From a virus: a stretch of 42,748 bases of DNA. The stretch lies in the UHGV virus genome UHGV-1372698; one strand, given 5' to 3'. Both the position numbers and the translations under genes were made by a program. Position 1 is the stretch's first letter. The number at the start of each line of letters is the position of its first letter. Of the stretch, positions 260 to 42,748 are shown piece by piece. Below the pieces are notes generated by a model. That model had not been told where the DNA came from and made no database searches. It was given only the letters and a program-made list of their open reading frames with translations.

Positions 260-604
260 TTACCATGTGTTGGTGTGTTGTGTTGGCATGACGGCGATGG
301 GTAGTCTGTCTCTTTCGTCCTCGTTTTTTTGGTAGTGGCGTGTCCTGCCTTTGCCGTGTCTGCCGTTGCCTCGTCTGCTGTTGCATTTGGCGCAGAGGAC
401 TCGTCCGTTGTCCGGGTGATTGGATCCGCCTAGTGATGCTGGGATTATGTGGTCTGCTTCAGCGGAGTTGGGTTTGCGTTGTCCGTTGTTATTGTATTGG
501 AGTTTTACTCCGCATGCTGGGCAGTGTGTGATGCCCATTTGTTGTGCTCTGGCTAGTACTTGTTTTCTGAATTGTCTGTGTTCGCGCGTGCTTGTTCTGC
601 TCAC
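260..604 (-). CDS. HNH endonuclease (phage packaging-associated HNH)
   Basis: 114-aa ORF with classic HNH signature: CPACG...ADHIIPASLGG..N..LCAKCN. GTG start at 604 preceded by AGGAGG with 6-nt spacing. Sits across the non-coding region from the terminase genes, as in cos-type phages. Confidence 0.8.
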   Translation of the reverse strand: MSRTSTREHRQFRKQVLARAQQMGITHCPACGVKLQYNNNGQRKPNSAEADHIIPASLGGSNHPDNGRVLCAKCNSRRGNGRHGKGRTRHYQKNEDERDRLPIAVMPTQHTNTW

Positions 605-13608: not shown

Positions 13609-14664
13609 ATGATGCAACCTTCATACAAACTGTACAGGCTAGCCGCTAACAGATTGGAGCGGCTTCAAACAAGTGTCCCCAGCGGGGAGTTCCTTTTCCC
13701 TTCAGTGGATGATGCCCTAGAATGGTGCTTCACCTACTTGGAGATTCCCGAGGACAAGAAATGGCGTTTCGTGCGCCCCGACATTACCAAGCCAATCGCC
13801 CCGTGCAACCTTGACGTGGCACTAGATCATACGCCGGATATGCCGTATTTGCGCTACCATCGCAAAGCGAATGAGACGCTCATGCCGAGCCGTTCCTACA
13901 ACGATATTCGCCTCAATATTTGGGCGTGGCGAGAGGAGAACGGTGTGGATAATTTTGAGTTCGACGGCATGATGTCAGCTATCGAATGGTGCTACAACGA
14001 ATTCAACCCATCGGTTGTGTTCGAATGGGAATTCGCAACCGAGAACGGGGTATTTCGCCCTGGCGAAATCTCTATCATACGTACCAAGACAAGAAAGAAA
14101 GGTCGCAACCGCCGTATTCTCCATCCGGTCAAGCCAGTAAACAAGAACTTGACCGGGGAGGAGCCGGAAATGGTGGGACGCCGTTTTCGGCAGTGGGAGG
14201 TCACGTCCTCTGAGTACAGGTTCATGAGTGATCACCATAAGTATTTTCATATGCGTTGCGTGAATTGCGGGGAAGAGAAGTGGATTCGTGTCTCGCGTTT
14301 CAGTGGCGGCGAACCTGTGAATTGCCCGTGTACTAGCTCATCGCTTCGCATGTACAAGGAACTGCCGAAATGGCTCACCCCTTCACTCATGCGACGCATT
14401 TATGACCTGAAAAGATACATTCCGAAAGAGGACTTCCATTTCGATTCTCCACAGGATTGTGCAATATGGTGTTATAAGAATCTGCCTTTCCCGGACGACC
14501 CGGATACGCCGTGGACTCTGAAAAAGGGGCGAGGCAAGCCGATGGCGCCGGAGACACTGTGGCTCAAGGTAGACGGAGTGCGTTCGGATACGGTGAAGAG
14601 TATTGCTGCCGTGAACAAGTCGCGGCGAAGCCTACGAAAGACTAAGGGAGGAGGAAAGGCATGA
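13609..14664 (+). CDS. zinc-ribbon-containing hypothetical protein
   Basis: ATG preceded by AAAAAGAGAGAAGAGAGAAAACACGA. Contains RCVNCGEEKW...VNCPC. Confidence 0.5.
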   Translation: MMQPSYKLYRLAANRLERLQTSVPSGEFLFPSVDDALEWCFTYLEIPEDKKWRFVRPDITKPIAPCNLDVALDHTPDMPYLRYHRKANETLMPSRSYNDIRLNIWAWREENGVDNFEFDGMMSAIEWCYNEFNPSVVFEWEFATENGVFRPGEISIIRTKTRKKGRNRRILHPVKPVNKNLTGEEPEMVGRRFRQWEVTSSEYRFMSDHHKYFHMRCVNCGEEKWIRVSRFSGGEPVNCPCTSSSLRMYKELPKWLTPSLMRRIYDLKRYIPKEDFHFDSPQDCAIWCYKNLPFPDDPDTPWTLKKGRGKPMAPETLWLKVDGVRSDTVKSIAAVNKSRRSLRKTKGGGKA

Positions 14665-38009: not shown

Positions 38010-39635
38010 TTAGTTTATTGGTGTTTTGGTGCCGCCGGGCAGTTTAATGTTGCGCTTAACCCTGTTCCTTGTATTGGGCGCATTATTAACACCCAGGTTA
38101 TTGCCGCTACCGTTATTGCCGTTATTGCCGGTATTGCGGTCGACATCGGCGGCATTACCGTCGCCGTTATTGTTGGCCGCGTCACTATTGTCACCGTTCT
38201 CGCCCTTCTCATCCACAGGGTTCTCGTTGTTCGTGGCGGCGAGAGCACGATCAAGCAACGACACCGCGTTCTTTTTACGATTCTCAGCGTTAATGTCTGC
38301 GAGATCGTCCTCGGTGAGTCCAGCACGCCGCATAAGAGTCTGCGACTCCTGCAACGACGGGAAAGCAGACACCATTTTAACCGCGAAATCGGCGGCAGAC
38401 GACGGCGAGGAATAGCGGGCGGGCGTCCACTTCACTGAAGTCTTCCACGACTCGGCGGGCGGCTCGTCGAGCTTGTCTCTGACCATAATAATGTTCTGCA
38501 GCGTGCGCCGCAATGGGGCGGTGAAAATACGCCACTGATACTCGGCTTCGTCCGCGAGCGCCGCCTCAGCCGCCTGCATCGCCTCGGCCGAGGCGGGGTT
38601 CTCCGCAAATACTCCGATAGCGGACTGGGGGAGGTTTGTGGCTGCACACAGATTCTGTGCCAGTTGACGGTACATTTCCAGGTGGGGGCTCATGGTCATT
38701 TGTGAGAATTGCCCGACCGACGGAATGTCGCCGTTCTCGTTCGGCTCAAGCACCTGCACGCGGGCCATGATTGCGGACCACCTGTCTTGGCCGGCGAAAT
38801 CTGCTCTTTCCGCGCCGAGCACGTACCGCTGCGGGGAGGAGAAGAATTCGGCGGACGTTTCCGCGCGGACCATCGTCCTCACCGCCGCATCCGTGAGATA
38901 GCGCACTTCACGGGTGATTCGTGAATGCCCCAACGGCCGATTCAGCTGCGGGTCGTAGCAGAGTGCTTCAACGAAAATGCGGTTGGGCGTATCTCCGAGC
39001 TTTTCGGCTTTCCAGCCGCCGCCGTTCTCTTTGGCGTCGATTCGCCAAATAGCGGTGGAAGTGTGCATGATGGCGCCGGCCGGCTGCCCGTATTTGTCGG
39101 TCTGATCGATTGTGAGGGCGGCTTCGATTATGCGACGCCTAGTGTCCCATAGTGCGGCGGACCATTCTGCGTCACGGGCCTGCACGACCACGGGCGGCTC
39201 GCCGATGGTCTCGTCCCCCCGCGTCACGGTTAGTAGTGAGAAAGAATGCTTGTACGCGGACGTTATTGCCTGCGCGAGATCAAGGTCGTAATTGTTTGCG
39301 GAGAGTATTTCGTTTGCTTCGAAAGCGTCGGGTGCCCCGTTTAGGGAGTAGCCCTCGAAAACGTGCCTCCTGGCGAGCATGGTGACGACTTTCTGAGGCC
39401 AACCCAACGCGGCTTTGGTGCGCGTCATTTGCGGCGGAATACTGATACCCAAATCCTGGAAAGCGCGGTGGCCATCATAGTAGACGGACAGCAGCTTGTT
39501 TTTGTTCGAGTGCTGCTGCCATTTCTGCCACAGTTGCAGGAATGTTGCCTGGTCTTCGTCGGGGAGTCCGGAAATGCGGGTCGGGGCCGGCGTAGCGTTA
39601 ACCAATCGCCCGTCGTCAGGATAAATTTCAGTCAT
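38010..39635 (-). CDS. portal protein
   Basis: 541 aa after TerL with ATGA overlap. N-terminal pattern typical of SPP1/phiC31-type portals. Asn/Gly-rich low-complexity C-terminus. Confidence 0.8.
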   Translation of the reverse strand: MTEIYPDDGRLVNATPAPTRISGLPDEDQATFLQLWQKWQQHSNKNKLLSVYYDGHRAFQDLGISIPPQMTRTKAALGWPQKVVTMLARRHVFEGYSLNGAPDAFEANEILSANNYDLDLAQAITSAYKHSFSLLTVTRGDETIGEPPVVVQARDAEWSAALWDTRRRIIEAALTIDQTDKYGQPAGAIMHTSTAIWRIDAKENGGGWKAEKLGDTPNRIFVEALCYDPQLNRPLGHSRITREVRYLTDAAVRTMVRAETSAEFFSSPQRYVLGAERADFAGQDRWSAIMARVQVLEPNENGDIPSVGQFSQMTMSPHLEMYRQLAQNLCAATNLPQSAIGVFAENPASAEAMQAAEAALADEAEYQWRIFTAPLRRTLQNIIMVRDKLDEPPAESWKTSVKWTPARYSSPSSAADFAVKMVSAFPSLQESQTLMRRAGLTEDDLADINAENRKKNAVSLLDRALAATNNENPVDEKGENGDNSDAANNNGDGNAADVDRNTGNNGNNGSGNNLGVNNAPNTRNRVKRNIKLPGGTKTPIN

Positions 39636-41125
39636 AGGAACAGTACTCCGCCGCCACGATCATTTCTATTATTGGCGTTTTCGATTTTATCATAAGGCCT
39701 GTAACGGGGCCGTCTTTTTGTTGTGCGTGCGGCCCACATTGCGAGCGTGCAGGCTTCTAGGCCGGCTACGGTGGCGCCGGGCGGGGCTTGTAGCGCCCAT
39801 CCGCCTGACGTTCCGATCGGGCGCGGTGTCGCGGACGCGGCCTCAGTCCGCAATTGCATGTCGTCCAAGTGCGTGATCGTGTTTTCGCGTAGTGAGGCGT
39901 CTAGCATGCTGTAGGCGTCTATGATTTGCGTGATCGTGGGTGTGATGATGACTTGCGGGCGTACTCCGATCGAACGGAGTCTTTCGATTGTGTCGCCGGC
40001 ACCGTATTTTCCGTCTACGATGATTTGCGCCCATCTGTCTTTTGTGTCCGCAATGTAGTCGATAATCCATTGTGTGCCTTCGTTCATGCGGCGGACGCCT
40101 TGGTGTGTGCAGAGTTCAACGTGTGTGGGCGTGTTTTGCTTGTGTCCTGCTCTGGCTAGGGCGCAGGTTGATCCGTCGGGTGCGAACCGAATGGCGGCGC
40201 ACCATCGCATGCCACTGGGAGTGTTTTCGGGCCGTATTGTGGCCGTGTTCCAGGCGACGGGGTCGATTGCGAGCTTGTCGTTGGCGCGGTCCCATATTCC
40301 GAGGCCTTCACGTCGGAATGATTCTTCCCCGAGCTGCCGCCGCATTCTTAGAATGGCGGACTCGGGGGTGCGGCGAGGGTATGATGGGTTTGCTTTTTCC
40401 CATTGTTTTCTGTCGTCGCTGTTAGCGTCGTAGTCGGCGGCCAGTTCGAGGTAGAGGCCGTCTTTTATTTCGCCTTGTAGGGCGAGGTTGCGGAATTCAC
40501 TGAAGGCTTCGGATGGGTCTTTTGGTTTTGGCGGTGTTCCGATTTTGATGATGAGCGGGTCGGGCGCCGTGTTTGTGGCGGGGATCATGTCGTCTAGTGC
40601 GGCTGCGCCGAGGATCTGGGCTTCGTCGAAGAGGATCATGTCTACGCCGTGGAATCCTCGTCCGAAGCCGCCTTCGCGGGCTCCGAAGAGAATGCGGGAC
40701 CCGTTGTTGAAGAGGATGGCTTGCTGCCCGTTTGCTTGACGTATCTTCTGGACGTATGGGGCGATTTCGGGTATTTGTGTCGTTCCTTTCATGTCGTTGA
40801 ATGTTTCGTCTGCGGTGCGTGTGCGGTGTGCGGTCCAGAGGACGAAGTAGTTGGGGTGGAGGGTGGCGAGTGCGAATGTGAGGCCGCCGATTGTGTATGT
40901 TTTGCCGACCTGTCTTGGGATGGATGCTTGGATTCCGTCGATGCTGGCGGCGTAGTGGCCGTCGTTTCGTTTTGCGAGGATTGCTTTGAGCCAGTCTTGT
41001 TGCCAAATGTCGAGGGGGTATTGCATTTCTTGGAGGCGGCGTTGGACTGGTGGCCAGGCGGTGTGTGTGATGTTTTCTGGGAGGGTGAGGTGGGCGGCGA
41101 TTTCGGATAGGTGTTTTTCGCTCAT
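39632..41125 (-). CDS. terminase large subunit
   Basis: Walker A IPRQVGKTY, Walker B DMILFDEAQ, C-terminal nuclease-like domain. 497 aa. Confidence 0.85.
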   Translation of the reverse strand: MSEKHLSEIAAHLTLPENITHTAWPPVQRRLQEMQYPLDIWQQDWLKAILAKRNDGHYAASIDGIQASIPRQVGKTYTIGGLTFALATLHPNYFVLWTAHRTRTADETFNDMKGTTQIPEIAPYVQKIRQANGQQAILFNNGSRILFGAREGGFGRGFHGVDMILFDEAQILGAAALDDMIPATNTAPDPLIIKIGTPPKPKDPSEAFSEFRNLALQGEIKDGLYLELAADYDANSDDRKQWEKANPSYPRRTPESAILRMRRQLGEESFRREGLGIWDRANDKLAIDPVAWNTATIRPENTPSGMRWCAAIRFAPDGSTCALARAGHKQNTPTHVELCTHQGVRRMNEGTQWIIDYIADTKDRWAQIIVDGKYGAGDTIERLRSIGVRPQVIITPTITQIIDAYSMLDASLRENTITHLDDMQLRTEAASATPRPIGTSGGWALQAPPGATVAGLEACTLAMWAARTTKRRPRYRPYDKIENANNRNDRGGGVLFL

Positions 41126-41128
41126 TGT

Positions 41129-41410
41129 TTAGATGCCGTCCCAGGTTTGTGTTTCGTTTGGAATGTCGGTGGTGTGTGTGGTGGTGTTTTCGTTTTGTGT
41201 GGTGGCGAGTTGGTCTGTGATTTGTATGAGTTGTGCGGTGAGTTTTGTGAGTGCTGTGTCGCCTGTTCTGGGGTCGTCTATGACGGTGGCGATTTTGTGT
41301 GCGAGTGCTTGGCGGATGAGTGTGGGGTTGTTTGTGTTTGTGGCGTCTGTGATGGGGGTGGGGCTGTTGGGTTCGTATACGGTGATTGTGGTGTTTGTGT
41401 GGGTTGTCAT
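41129..41410 (-). CDS. hypothetical protein; small terminase subunit candidate by position only
   Basis: 93-aa ORF immediately upstream of TerL. ATG lies 7 nt after a TATAAT element (leaderless-like). Thr/Asn-rich with a helical middle. Confidence 0.3.
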   Translation of the reverse strand: MTTHTNTTITVYEPNSPTPITDATNTNNPTLIRQALAHKIATVIDDPRTGDTALTKLTAQLIQITDQLATTQNENTTTHTTDIPNETQTWDGI

Positions 41411-41414
41411 GTCT

Positions 41415-41452
41415 TCTATTATATGTTGTGATATCGGTCATGTTTGGTGGGG
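41415..41452 (-). promoter_or_regulatory. predicted late-operon promoter (-10 TATAAT, plus-strand ATTATA at 41418-41423; leaderless start at 41410)
   Basis: TATAAT 7 nt upstream of the first ATG of the minus-strand late operon. Repeat array immediately upstream. Confidence 0.4.
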
Positions 41453-41548
41453 TTTTCCACAGGGTTTTCCACAGGTTTGGGAGTTTTCCACATGACGACG
41501 GTCACATTGTGGTGTGGGTTACTGGAGTTATCCACAGGGTTTTCCACA
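41453..41548 (+). repeat. five direct DnaA-box-like 9-mers: TTTTCCACA (41453, 41465, 41484, 41540) and exact TTATCCACA (41528), as two 12-bp tandem pairs
   Basis: Read directly. Matches TTATCCACA / TTWTNCACA. Located 30-130 bp upstream of the late promoter -10. Confidence 0.7.
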
Positions 41549-41933
41549 AGCAGGGAGGGATGGGCAGACCTTCGGGGTGTTCGCGGCCGGATGGGGGGAG
41601 GGGGAGTGGCCCCCATCACATGGTTTGTGTGGTGTGCGTCTCGTTTCATTGCGTCCCTGTCTTGTTTTGTGATGTGGGTCCCACTTTAAGGGATCCCTTA
41701 TGGCGTTGGGGCCCCCTTTGTGTTCGCCCAGTTTTGTTGCCATGGTTTTTTTGAACGCCATTGTTGTTTCACGCCTTTGAATGTTTTTGCGTGTTTTTGT
41801 AACATTTCTTTTGTTTTTATGTATTTTTATGCGTTTGTGTGTTTGTGCGTTGCGTGTTGCCTTGTGGCATGTGTTGGCACCATGCATGGTGCATGGTATT
41901 GGTGTGCATGTCATGCATCACATCATCGTCGTG

Positions 41934-42050
41934 TGTTCATCATCATGTTCATCATCATGTTCATCATTGATCATCATCATGTTCGTTGTTCATTGTTCAT
42001 TGATCAATCATTGAACAATAATTGTTGATCATGTTGATCATGATTGTTCG
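41934..42050. repeat. AT-rich iteron block: TGTTCATCATCA x3 (12-bp period), TGTTCAT x2, inverted TGTTCA...TGAACA, and four TGATCA palindromes
   Basis: Read directly. Lowest-GC stretch of the window. Confidence 0.6.
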
Positions 42051-42748
42051 TTAGTTGTGTGAACGTGAACGGTGTGAGAGTGGATGTGGATGGCGTCCGT
42101 CCTCCTCGGTGTGTCGTGTGGAATGGCGGTGGTGTGTGCTGCTGTCGGTCTGCTCAACCCAGTGTGTGTGGCCTGGCCTGTGCTCTACCTCCTCGGTGCG
42201 TGGTGAGTACTGCAGTTATGTCATGTCATGTTGTGTACTGTTCATTGCCGAGTGTGTGTGGGTGAGTGCGCGTCTGTGCTGTTCGTGTGGTGGGGCATCC
42301 TCTGTCTGCCCCCCTATCGTCGTGGTGGTGGGTGGGGCCATCGTGGATGGTGGGGTGGCGTGACGAGGCGGGGTGGCATGGTGGGTGAAGGGCGGGTGTG
42401 TTGCACTGACCTCCCGTCTGTACGTCAGTGTCCCCTCCTGCTTTGTATCGGCGCTCCCCTCATGTTCATTCGGTGGCCGTGTTGAAGGGCGGTGGTGGTG
42501 TGTGTTGTGGTGTCCCCGTCTTCGGATCGGGTCCTCCCATCTCATGTTGTGTCCGTTCCTCTTCTGCTCGTGTGTTGGTGTGTTTGTTGTGGGTGGGGAA
42601 GTGCGGTGGGGTGTGCTGCTTACAGTAATGGTGTTGGCGTAGTGGTGTGGTGTTGTGTTGTGGAATGGCGGCGGCGGGTGTTTGCTTCGTGTGAAGCTGT
42701 GTTCTACTTCTCTTCTCCCTGTCTTTGTGTTTGCTGTCACAGCATTGT

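Follow-up and report, generated by a model that had tools for sequence, protein, structure and literature searches.

What do five copies of a motif for the host replication initiator do at the end of a phage genome? The question is raised by a 96-bp stretch, positions 41453 to 41548, of UHGV virus genome UHGV-1372698, a viral sequence of 42,748 nucleotides that was analyzed at its full length and is referred to here as the window. A preliminary description of the locus had noted five repeats resembling DnaA boxes and proposed three functions for them: a phage origin dependent on the host DnaA, an array of small-terminase binding sites like the cosB of phage lambda, or activator sites for late transcription. 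DnaA is known both as a replication initiator and as a transcription factor. We conclude that the array is real, conserved, and composed of DnaA-type boxes, and that it belongs to the left flank of the cohesive end site (cos) rather than to an origin. Five such boxes located 18 bp inside the DNA end suggest, from the sequence, that a host replication protein may be involved in recognizing or gating the start of packaging. That host DnaA binds this array, and that the resulting complex helps or gates both packaging initiation and the adjacent late promoter, is in our opinion the likeliest of the readings, a serious possibility that falls somewhat short of probable.

An array of DnaA-type boxes

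Six matches to the motif TTWTCCACA are present in the window, where 0.55 would be expected, and none of 100 shuffled sequences reached six. Five of the copies, one TTATCCACA and four TTTTCCACA, are packed within the 96 bp, all on the + strand (Table 1); the sixth, at 13944 (-), is isolated and within chance expectation. A repeat finder returned a unit of 12 to 13 nt, GGGTTTTCCACA, and the layout is that of two tandem pairs with 12-bp spacing plus one single box. The preliminary description had seen the same five direct boxes, one exact and four variants, arranged in two 12-bp pairs, and the 30 to 130 bp at which it placed them upstream of a TATAAT agree with the 29 to 125 nt that we measured.

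The identity of the boxes as genuine DnaA-type sequences is strongly supported by sequence comparison. The 9-mers fit the consensus TT[A/T]TNCACA. In 45 orthologous arrays we counted 295 boxes (219 TTTTCCACA, 69 TTATCCACA, 2 TTGTCCACA, and 5 singletons), and, since 290 of them are TT[T/A/G]TCCACA, almost all the variation falls at position 3, which the DnaA consensus leaves free. The exact 21-mer pair, TTTTCCACAGGGTTTTCCACA, was found in at least 119 IMG/VR stretches, 67 of them unrelated to the window (31 to 70% GC), many with further TTATCCACA or TTGTCCACA boxes alongside. The same 21-mer is present in more than 120 bacterial genomes across many phyla. A DnaA homologue was located inside the 8-kb stretch around it in 26 of 120 bacterial genomes, mostly at 0.5 kb or less from the pair, although these 26 cases are not independent, as they are dominated by a few related acidobacterial groups. 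Three of the nearby DnaA proteins were confirmed with Pfam. By a rough estimate, for genomes of a few megabases, the chance that dnaA falls in a given 8-kb stretch is about 0.2%. The pair reads TGTGGAAAA on the coding strand in 23 of the 26, the same as in the window phage. In unrelated viral contigs the context of the 21-mer is heterogeneous (terminases, helicases, a methylase, an integrase, a baseplate gene, and some coding repeats), and across all phages it points to no single function.

The array lies at the left flank of cos

To locate the physical end of the genome, we used 60 IMG/VR loci that encode a small-terminase-like protein 72 to 100% identical to that of the window, 41 of which have their upstream flank cut by the end of the contig. 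Eight of these 41 start exactly at TGCCCATCC / TGCCCATCCCTCCCTGC, one starts one base earlier, and another carries an Illumina adapter tail, CTGAACCGCTCTTCCGATCT, fused directly to the terminal T (L129); 13 break inside the array. As contig starts and adapter fusion coincide there, the left end of the packaged genome is window position 41566 (- strand). The outermost box is 18 bp from this end, so that the array starts at +19 (positions with a plus sign are counted from the left end); the boxes span +19 to +114, and the small-terminase ATG is at +157. Two chimeric contigs, L131 and L179, fold back after CCCCGAAGGTC, which suggests an 11-nt 3' overhang at 41567-41577. The right end of Rothia phage Spartoi is similar, CGAACA followed by CCCCCCGGCGAT (CGAACA+CCCC...). 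Several of these public contigs contain assembly artifacts (the adapter tail of L129, the fold-back inverted duplications of L131 and L179, and a Nextera adapter after a box pair in L002), which are errors of the records, yet useful as evidence of the terminus.

The array occupies the 140 bp from the cos nick to the promoter of the small-terminase gene. It therefore has the position of cosB, which in lambda is also found between the cohesive end and the small-terminase promoter. The preliminary description had located the boxes between the packaging region and the late promoter; they are instead between the cohesive end (41566/41567) and the small-terminase gene promoter.

Table 1. Features of the cos region and of the genes around it in the window; positions with a plus sign are counted from the left end of the packaged genome.
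Feature	Position	Strand	Remarks
Box 1, TTTTCCACA	41540..41548	+	Reads TGTGGAAAA on the - strand, the forward strand of the phage; spans +19 to +27
Box 2, TTATCCACA	41528..41536	+	Exact E. coli-type DnaA box; separated from box 1 by 3 bp; at +31
Box 3, TTTTCCACA	41484..41492	+	Single box, +75
Box 4, TTTTCCACA	41465..41473	+	+94; first of the promoter-proximal pair
Box 5, TTTTCCACA	41453..41461	+	+106; 29 nt upstream of TATAAT
Spacer from box 3 to the cos-proximal pair	41493..41527	.	Conserved; short inverted repeat TCACA-A-TGTGA in relatives
First 18 nt of the packaged genome, TGCCCATCCCTCCCTGCT	41549..41566	-	C-tract common to left ends of related cos phages
Putative 11-nt 3' cohesive-end segment, CCCCGAAGGTC	41567..41577	-	Fold-back chimeric contigs L131, L179
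Right-end flank of cos	41578..41625	.	G/C-rich inverted repeat; conserved in relatives
TATAAT -10 element	41418-41423	-	Perfect; ends 7 nt before the ATG (41410) of the 93-aa gene
93-aa small-terminase-like protein	41129-41410	-	Matches phrog_1459 'terminase small subunit', the family of Spartoi and MrSmee gene 1
Large terminase	39632-41125	-	49-50% identity to terminases of Rothia phage Spartoi and Arthrobacter phage MrSmee
Portal	38010-39635	-	
HNH endonuclease	260-604	-	Right end of the genome

Conservation in close relatives

We compared 45 related IMG/VR contigs with a complete left end. The box positions +19, +31, +75, +94, and +106 are fixed across all of them, and in the orthologous alignment 40 of the 45 columns inside boxes are invariant, against 39 of 80 outside. 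The number of boxes per array is five in 13 contigs, seven in 24, and six, eight, or nine in seven more. Many relatives have one or two extra pairs, and extra boxes come as whole pairs about 31 bp apart; the alternating 12- and 19-bp spacing gives a 31-bp period, close to three helical turns. Among the relatives examined, those with additional pairs included, the last box keeps a distance of 27 to 29 nt from the TATAAT. The comparison with related phages that the preliminary description had proposed for box number and spacing thus came out in favor of a conserved array, with fixed positions in the 45 contigs.

The small terminase as a possible reader

The boxes could also be read by the phage terminase, with DnaA uninvolved. 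The array would then be a multiplied recognition element of the small terminase (A/T-tract plus CCAC), bound by an HK97-style ring as in a classical cosB, and its resemblance to DnaA boxes would be inherited or incidental. We hold this main alternative to be possible, but only tentatively so. It draws on the situation in HK97, in which the minimal site of the small terminase is located at +15 to +29, consists of a C:G pair and an A-tract read by shape, needs the A-tract, and tolerates A:T to T:A swaps (PMC11331095). The HK97 left end, ...AACCCGATTTTTTTAG, has CCCGA and then TTTTTTT at +19 to +30.

A comparable element is found in cultured relatives of the window phage. TTTTCCACA is located at nt 19 to 24 from the left end in Spartoi, MrSmee, AbbyDaisy, MargaretKali, Propionibacterium (P. 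freudenreichii) phage G4, and Rhodococcus phage Sleepyhead, all of which code for a phrog_1459 small terminase. The preliminary description had called all three of its readings unusual for an actinobacterial phage, which does not hold for the motif, since it is found near the left end in cultured Rothia, Arthrobacter, Propionibacterium, and Rhodococcus phages. The phrog_1459-type cos phages that we examined share a plan of the left end, with about 6 to 10 nt, a C-tract, 3 to 6 nt, and then, at +17 to +35, a T-run or inverted A-run with CCAC(A) (seen in the cultured phages L186, L187, L312-L315, L318-L320, L321, and L325). In its place and its A-tract character, this plan agrees with the HK97 site, and we found no published description of it. 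The C-tract with a T-run or inverted A-run was present in nine of nine phrog_1459 phages examined, and the element drifts by lineage (mycobacteriophages, L383-L394), as expected for a phage-encoded reader. The element at about +20 in this clade may be a terminase site that is occupied by box 1 in the window, which has AAAA at +24 to +27. As in HK97, the window phage combines a cos with a probable 3' overhang, an HNH endonuclease, and an A/T-tract element 15 to 30 bp inside the left end; unlike HK97, which has one site, the window phage and its relatives have five to nine.

The protein itself argues in the opposite direction. The window small terminase is acidic, with no lysine or arginine in its first 30 residues, four overall, and an isoelectric point of 4.55, so it is devoid of the basic N-terminal arm, whereas most members of the family have 5 to 10 basic residues there. 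HK97 TerS uses basic N- and C-terminal arms together with a basic tunnel, against the four basic residues of the entire window protein. Neither a winged-helix module nor basic arms could be recognized in it. It is only 16 to 23% identical to members of the family, and a search for homologues matched only close metagenomic relatives. A search of the PDB with the family profile returned only designed coiled coils and no related solved TerS, and the AlphaFold model, two helices with a confidence score (pLDDT) of 53, was too poor for a fold search. The prediction, of low confidence, is of a helical hairpin and no other recognizable fold. The sequence of the sites did not covary with that of the small terminase either; the divergent window protein keeps perfect boxes, while closer members of the family, those of TM4 and FlagStaff, have deviant ones. 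Two further facts are difficult to reconcile with a terminase reader, namely, that an unrelated phrog_226/phrog_9 terminase is accompanied by the same boxes with the same degeneracy, and that the identical 21-mer is found at dnaA genes. Judging from its sequence, the window protein seems a poor candidate for the reader of the boxes. Of the cosB-like array first proposed, the position is strongly supported, given the left end 18 bp from the outermost box and the HK97 site at +15 to +29, while the small terminase as its reader is not supported.

Recurrence next to unrelated terminases

The second lineage of phages with such arrays came from an unrelated contig, L005, which contains six boxes upstream of a TerS-like gene at its extreme end. 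In its relatives (L405-L411) the TerS-like protein belongs to phrog_226 and the large terminase to phrog_9, and no significant similarity links either of them to its window counterpart. Three of these seven contigs start at, or no more than one base from, CCCTTCTCGCT. Their arrays consist of TGTGGA[A/T/C]AA boxes, four to eight in number and grouped in pairs with 3-bp spacing, which start 32 nt inside the end, are oriented with the TerS gene, and extend up to it. At position 3, A, T, and G all occur, both inside single arrays and from one array to the next. Among the one-mismatch variants, position 5 is the most commonly affected (6 of 17, of the TTATACACA, TTATTCACA, TTTTGCACA, and TTTTTCACA types), and none has a change in CAC (positions 6, 8, and 9). 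Across the two lineages, then, the substitutions fall mainly at positions 3 and 5, which DnaA tolerates, and CACA is largely spared, apart from the 5 singletons of the window lineage. One contig of this lineage, L408, has further boxes in both orientations across the junction from the array.

A third case is provided by the Arthrobacter phages Tiff81 (L309, 50439-50482) and Seahorse (L316, 56390-56433), whose large terminase is distantly related to that of L005. Both have four 12-bp-phased boxes, TGTGGATAA-ccc-TGTGCACAA-cc-TGTGGATAA-gcc-TGTGGATAA, which immediately follow the HNH endonuclease stop codon and are 45 bp from the right cohesive end. Another record, L403, has TGTGGATAA immediately behind its HNH gene and, on the left side, TTTTCCACA at about +20. 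In all three lineages, the boxes have the form TGTGGA.AA on the strand that encodes the TerS gene downstream of them. Since the same boxes, with the same degeneracy, are found next to cos with unrelated terminases, a shared host protein is a simpler explanation than two convergent terminase specificities.

Tandem pairs are also found in other phages. A search seeded with the window repeat unit recovered them in 89 Microbacterium phage records, of which the one examined, Judebell (L311), has a pair at 344 to 364 nt, within a 577-bp noncoding left end. Klebsiella Przondovirus records have pairs at or near their start, beginning with TTGTGGATAACCCTGTGGATAAC (at 2 to 24 in Klebsiella phage 175002, L412), and 3-bp-spaced tandem pairs are present as well in cyanophages and microviruses, being intergenic in several Microviridae. 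An unrelated headful-type phage, L009, contains about ten boxes in two converging blocks (approximately 1560 to 1900) at the junction of the phrog_4102 small- and the large-terminase genes, which is the typical place for a pac site.

Promoter, origin, and titration of DnaA

The array is followed by a promoter, and we considered whether control of this promoter could be its entire function. The promoter was called on the basis of a perfect TATAAT 7 nt before the ATG and of its conservation in relatives; the same distance implies a leaderless transcript of the first structural gene. A strict sigma-70 promoter and terminator scan of 41300-42100 found no full promoter and no terminator, the -35 being weak. 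Under this alternative, the boxes would be repressor or activator sites through which DnaA controls the leaderless terminase/structural-operon promoter, and cos would be nearby because the promoter happens to be at the genome end. The location of the boxes at approximately -42 to -138 from the inferred start, the 27 to 29 nt between last box and -10, the strand shared by the boxes and the TerS gene in the three lineages, and the strand shared with the coding sequence in 23 of the 26 dnaA-adjacent pairs are all in its favor, and dnaA promoters are classically autoregulated by DnaA. However, in cultured relatives with a single box no promoter is recognizable from the box to gene 1 (which in MrSmee begins at 51, after a box at 21-29), the scan returned no full promoter, and arrays 20 to 50 bp from the nick in three lineages would be left unexplained. 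We therefore regard a purely regulatory role, with the closeness to cos incidental, as rather unlikely. Upstream sites for late transcription, as first proposed, are nonetheless possible, and the location of the boxes and their steady distance to the -10 element make some control of the promoter plausible.

A replication origin is unlikely as well, and slightly more so. The array would be in this case the DnaA-binding part of a host-DnaA-dependent origin, completed across the ligated cos by an AT-rich tract and iteron-like repeats. It is a cluster of five to nine boxes in the same orientation, and its + strand boxes point to an AT-rich tract (~41740-41850) and iteron-like palindromic repeats (41920-42050), 190 to 500 bp away; the plasmid origins P1 oriR and RK2 oriV combine DnaA boxes with iterons. 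In addition, no dedicated initiator was recognized among the replication genes (DUF3987, SNF2, and AAA_24). Nevertheless, the array is bordered directly by the GC-rich cos (41549-41625) and by the promoter; on reading these flanks we saw no adjoining AT-rich unwinding element and no DnaA-trios, and about 190 bp, with the nick in between, separate the boxes from the closest AT-rich tract. Around cos, the noncoding DNA of cultured relatives that have a box at this place amounts to about 100 bp, too little for an origin, and the L405-L411 lineage and Tiff81 also have no AT-rich flanks. DUF3987-type primase-helicases usually act at their own origins. Of the DnaA-dependent origin first proposed, only the identity of the boxes was retained, through the 21-mer at dnaA and the variation at position 3; the absence of an adjoining unwinding element or DnaA-trios spoke against the origin.

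The repeats at 41920-42050, 370 to 480 bp from cos, form an AT-rich, iteron-like region with TCATGTTCAT (four to five copies), ATCATTGATCA (four copies), and a 40-nt imperfect palindrome. They are conserved in the relative L146 and might serve the phage as an origin of its own or as a further signal for packaging.

Last, the array could act as a sink similar to datA, where five to nine boxes per genome copy titrate host DnaA and stop host initiation or DnaA-regulated genes. High-quality paired boxes whose number varies by whole pairs would suit a sink, as would the similar pairs scattered across unrelated phages (by helicases, methylase, and integrase, and in microviruses and cyanophages). A sink would account neither for the constant placement with respect to the end and the promoter nor for the recurrence beside cos in three lineages, and we consider it very improbable.

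A possible role of host DnaA in packaging

From the identity, clustering, phasing, and conservation of the boxes, their position relative to the end and the promoter, and their recurrence with an unrelated terminase, we tentatively infer binding by DnaA itself, as well as an effect of DnaA on the terminase and on RNA polymerase. In such a mechanism, with the phage DNA circular or concatemeric, host DnaA would use its domain IV to bind the box pairs. With 12 bp within a pair and 31 bp (three helical turns) between pairs, all pairs would face one side of the helix, and a nucleoprotein stretch of approximately 100 to 160 bp would start 18 bp from the nick. This complex would play the role that the R sites and integration host factor (IHF) have at lambda cosB, marking or shaping the packaging-start side of cos, and the shaped cos would let the large terminase, the HNH nuclease, and the acidic, armless small terminase assemble. 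The same complex would cover approximately -42 to -138 of the leaderless terminase-operon promoter, and late transcription and packaging would thereby be tied to the availability of DnaA. In a stronger version of the proposal, a set of actinobacterial cos phages would require host DnaA as a cofactor both to recognize cos and to initiate packaging, as the counterpart of IHF in at least two unrelated terminase lineages, with DnaA possibly replacing a DNA-binding arm lost by the small terminase. We find this version doubtful.

Several observations weigh against a role of DnaA here. The orientation of the box relative to the end is inverted between the window phage and its cultured relatives, and, with the boxes of Tiff81 lying on the other side of cos, no single geometry is conserved. 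Related phrog_1459 phages have a single element of a T-run and CCAC(A) at +17 to +29; in mycobacteriophages, as in several relatives known from metagenomes, it keeps the T-run but departs from the DnaA consensus (TM4 has TTTTCCACC, SirPhilip TTTTTTCCCAAC, Pinnie the inverted CTGGAAAAAAA, L393 TTTTTCCCGTTCAC, and L386 TTTTTCCCACG). This element coincides with the experimentally mapped HK97 TerS site, in agreement with a sequence that is read by the terminase and only looks like a DnaA box. Finally, actinobacterial DnaA is said to prefer TTGTCCACA, and G is found at position 3 in only 2 of the 295 boxes of the window lineage.

Genome layout and neighboring genes

The window is a circular permutation of a cos phage genome of ~42.7 kb, shown in reverse orientation, as relatives show that its two ends are contiguous. 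The genes that flank the array are all on the - strand (Table 1). HNH endonucleases of the kind coded at the right end assist cos cleavage in HK97-like phages. No DNA similarity to cultured phages was found for 41100-42748. The lineage is known from metagenomes alone, many of them apparently from human oral samples, and we infer that the host is probably Rothia.

Three other explanations of the array were discarded. A phage-encoded DnaA-like reader was rejected, as a hidden Markov model of DnaA domain IV had no match in the six-frame open reading frames (ORFs) of the window. A structured RNA was rejected as well, with no Rfam family and no tRNA found in the window. As for a coding role, the ORF at 41419-41649 (-) crosses the physical end, and the indels of the relatives, at about 31 bp, have a length not divisible by three.

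The coding strand at 39632-41410 is very rich in A+C, resulting in proteins rich in T, N, P, and H (for example, the TerS N-terminus, MTTHTNTTITVYEPNSPTPITDATNTNN) and in long spurious ORFs on the same strand, such as 40497-41441. From cos to an inverted repeat of the early region (41578-42748 plus 1-1000) there are about 2.2 kb with HNH as the sole gene and with an extreme strand skew, the GC skew reaching +0.36 and the AT skew -0.56. The sequence TGGAATGGCGGYG has eight copies in the window, against 0.22 expected, five of them within this stretch. An exact 33-nt direct repeat, GTAGTGCGCGCGCAGCTCTGCGAGCACGCACGT, is located at 114-146 and 775-807, inside long GC hairpins with no Rfam match. 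The 16-nt inverted repeat itself, AATTAGACACCGTCTA / TAGACAGTGTCTAATT at 1001-1039, is 94% complementary with a 7-nt gap, marks the border of the leftward-transcribed early region, and looks like an operator.

Comparison with known systems and significance

In lambda, cosB consists of the sites R3-I1-R2-R1, for gpNu1 and the host factor IHF. The array shares with it the presence of more than one short repeated protein-binding site between the cos nick and the small-terminase gene and the participation of a host DNA-binding protein in its architecture, IHF in lambda and, as proposed here, DnaA. It differs in that the repeats are canonical DnaA boxes in one orientation rather than terminase-specific sequences, and in that the small terminase has no recognizable winged-helix or other DNA-binding domain. 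With the clusters at oriC, at the dnaA promoter, at datA, and at plasmid origins such as P1 oriR and RK2 oriV, the array has in common the identical 9-mer consensus, the clustering in the same orientation, and the 21-bp pair beside dnaA. Unlike oriC-type clusters, it has no adjoining unwinding element or DnaA-trios and no iterons inside, and it is located at a packaging site.

In literature searches on the sequence motif, on Rothia phages, on the HK97 small terminase, and on DnaA boxes with cos, terminase, or actinobacteriophages, we found no report of DnaA or its boxes as part of a phage cos site. The nearest precedent is the DnaA-box pairs of the T5 terminal repeat. T5-like phages contain eight DnaA boxes "in pairs separated by 3 bp" in the injection-stop (iss) region of the terminal repeat, for which it was argued that they are not an origin (Davison, bioRxiv 10.1101/866236). 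Both cases involve 3-bp-spaced pairs in noncoding DNA near a genome terminus that are not part of an origin, and in both the role is a proposed one. The T5 boxes are found in long terminal repeats, on inverted repeats (IRC/IRD), some 6 to 9 kb from the end, and were proposed to halt DNA injection at the membrane, whereas the window boxes are direct repeats, 18 bp from the first-packaged end of a genome with cos ends and no long terminal repeat.

The array matters for how actinobacterial cos phages build their packaging-initiation complex without IHF. To our knowledge, Actinobacteria lack this factor, which lambda uses at cosB. The array is only 140 bp long and belongs to a group of phages with a cultured Rothia phage and easily handled Arthrobacter phages, which makes it directly testable. 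Should the reader be the terminase, we would have in the array a naturally occurring, multisite form of the recently solved HK97 recognition mode. Under the stronger version of the proposal, with host DnaA as a required cofactor, this protein, titrated by the replicating phage DNA, would also time packaging and late transcription.

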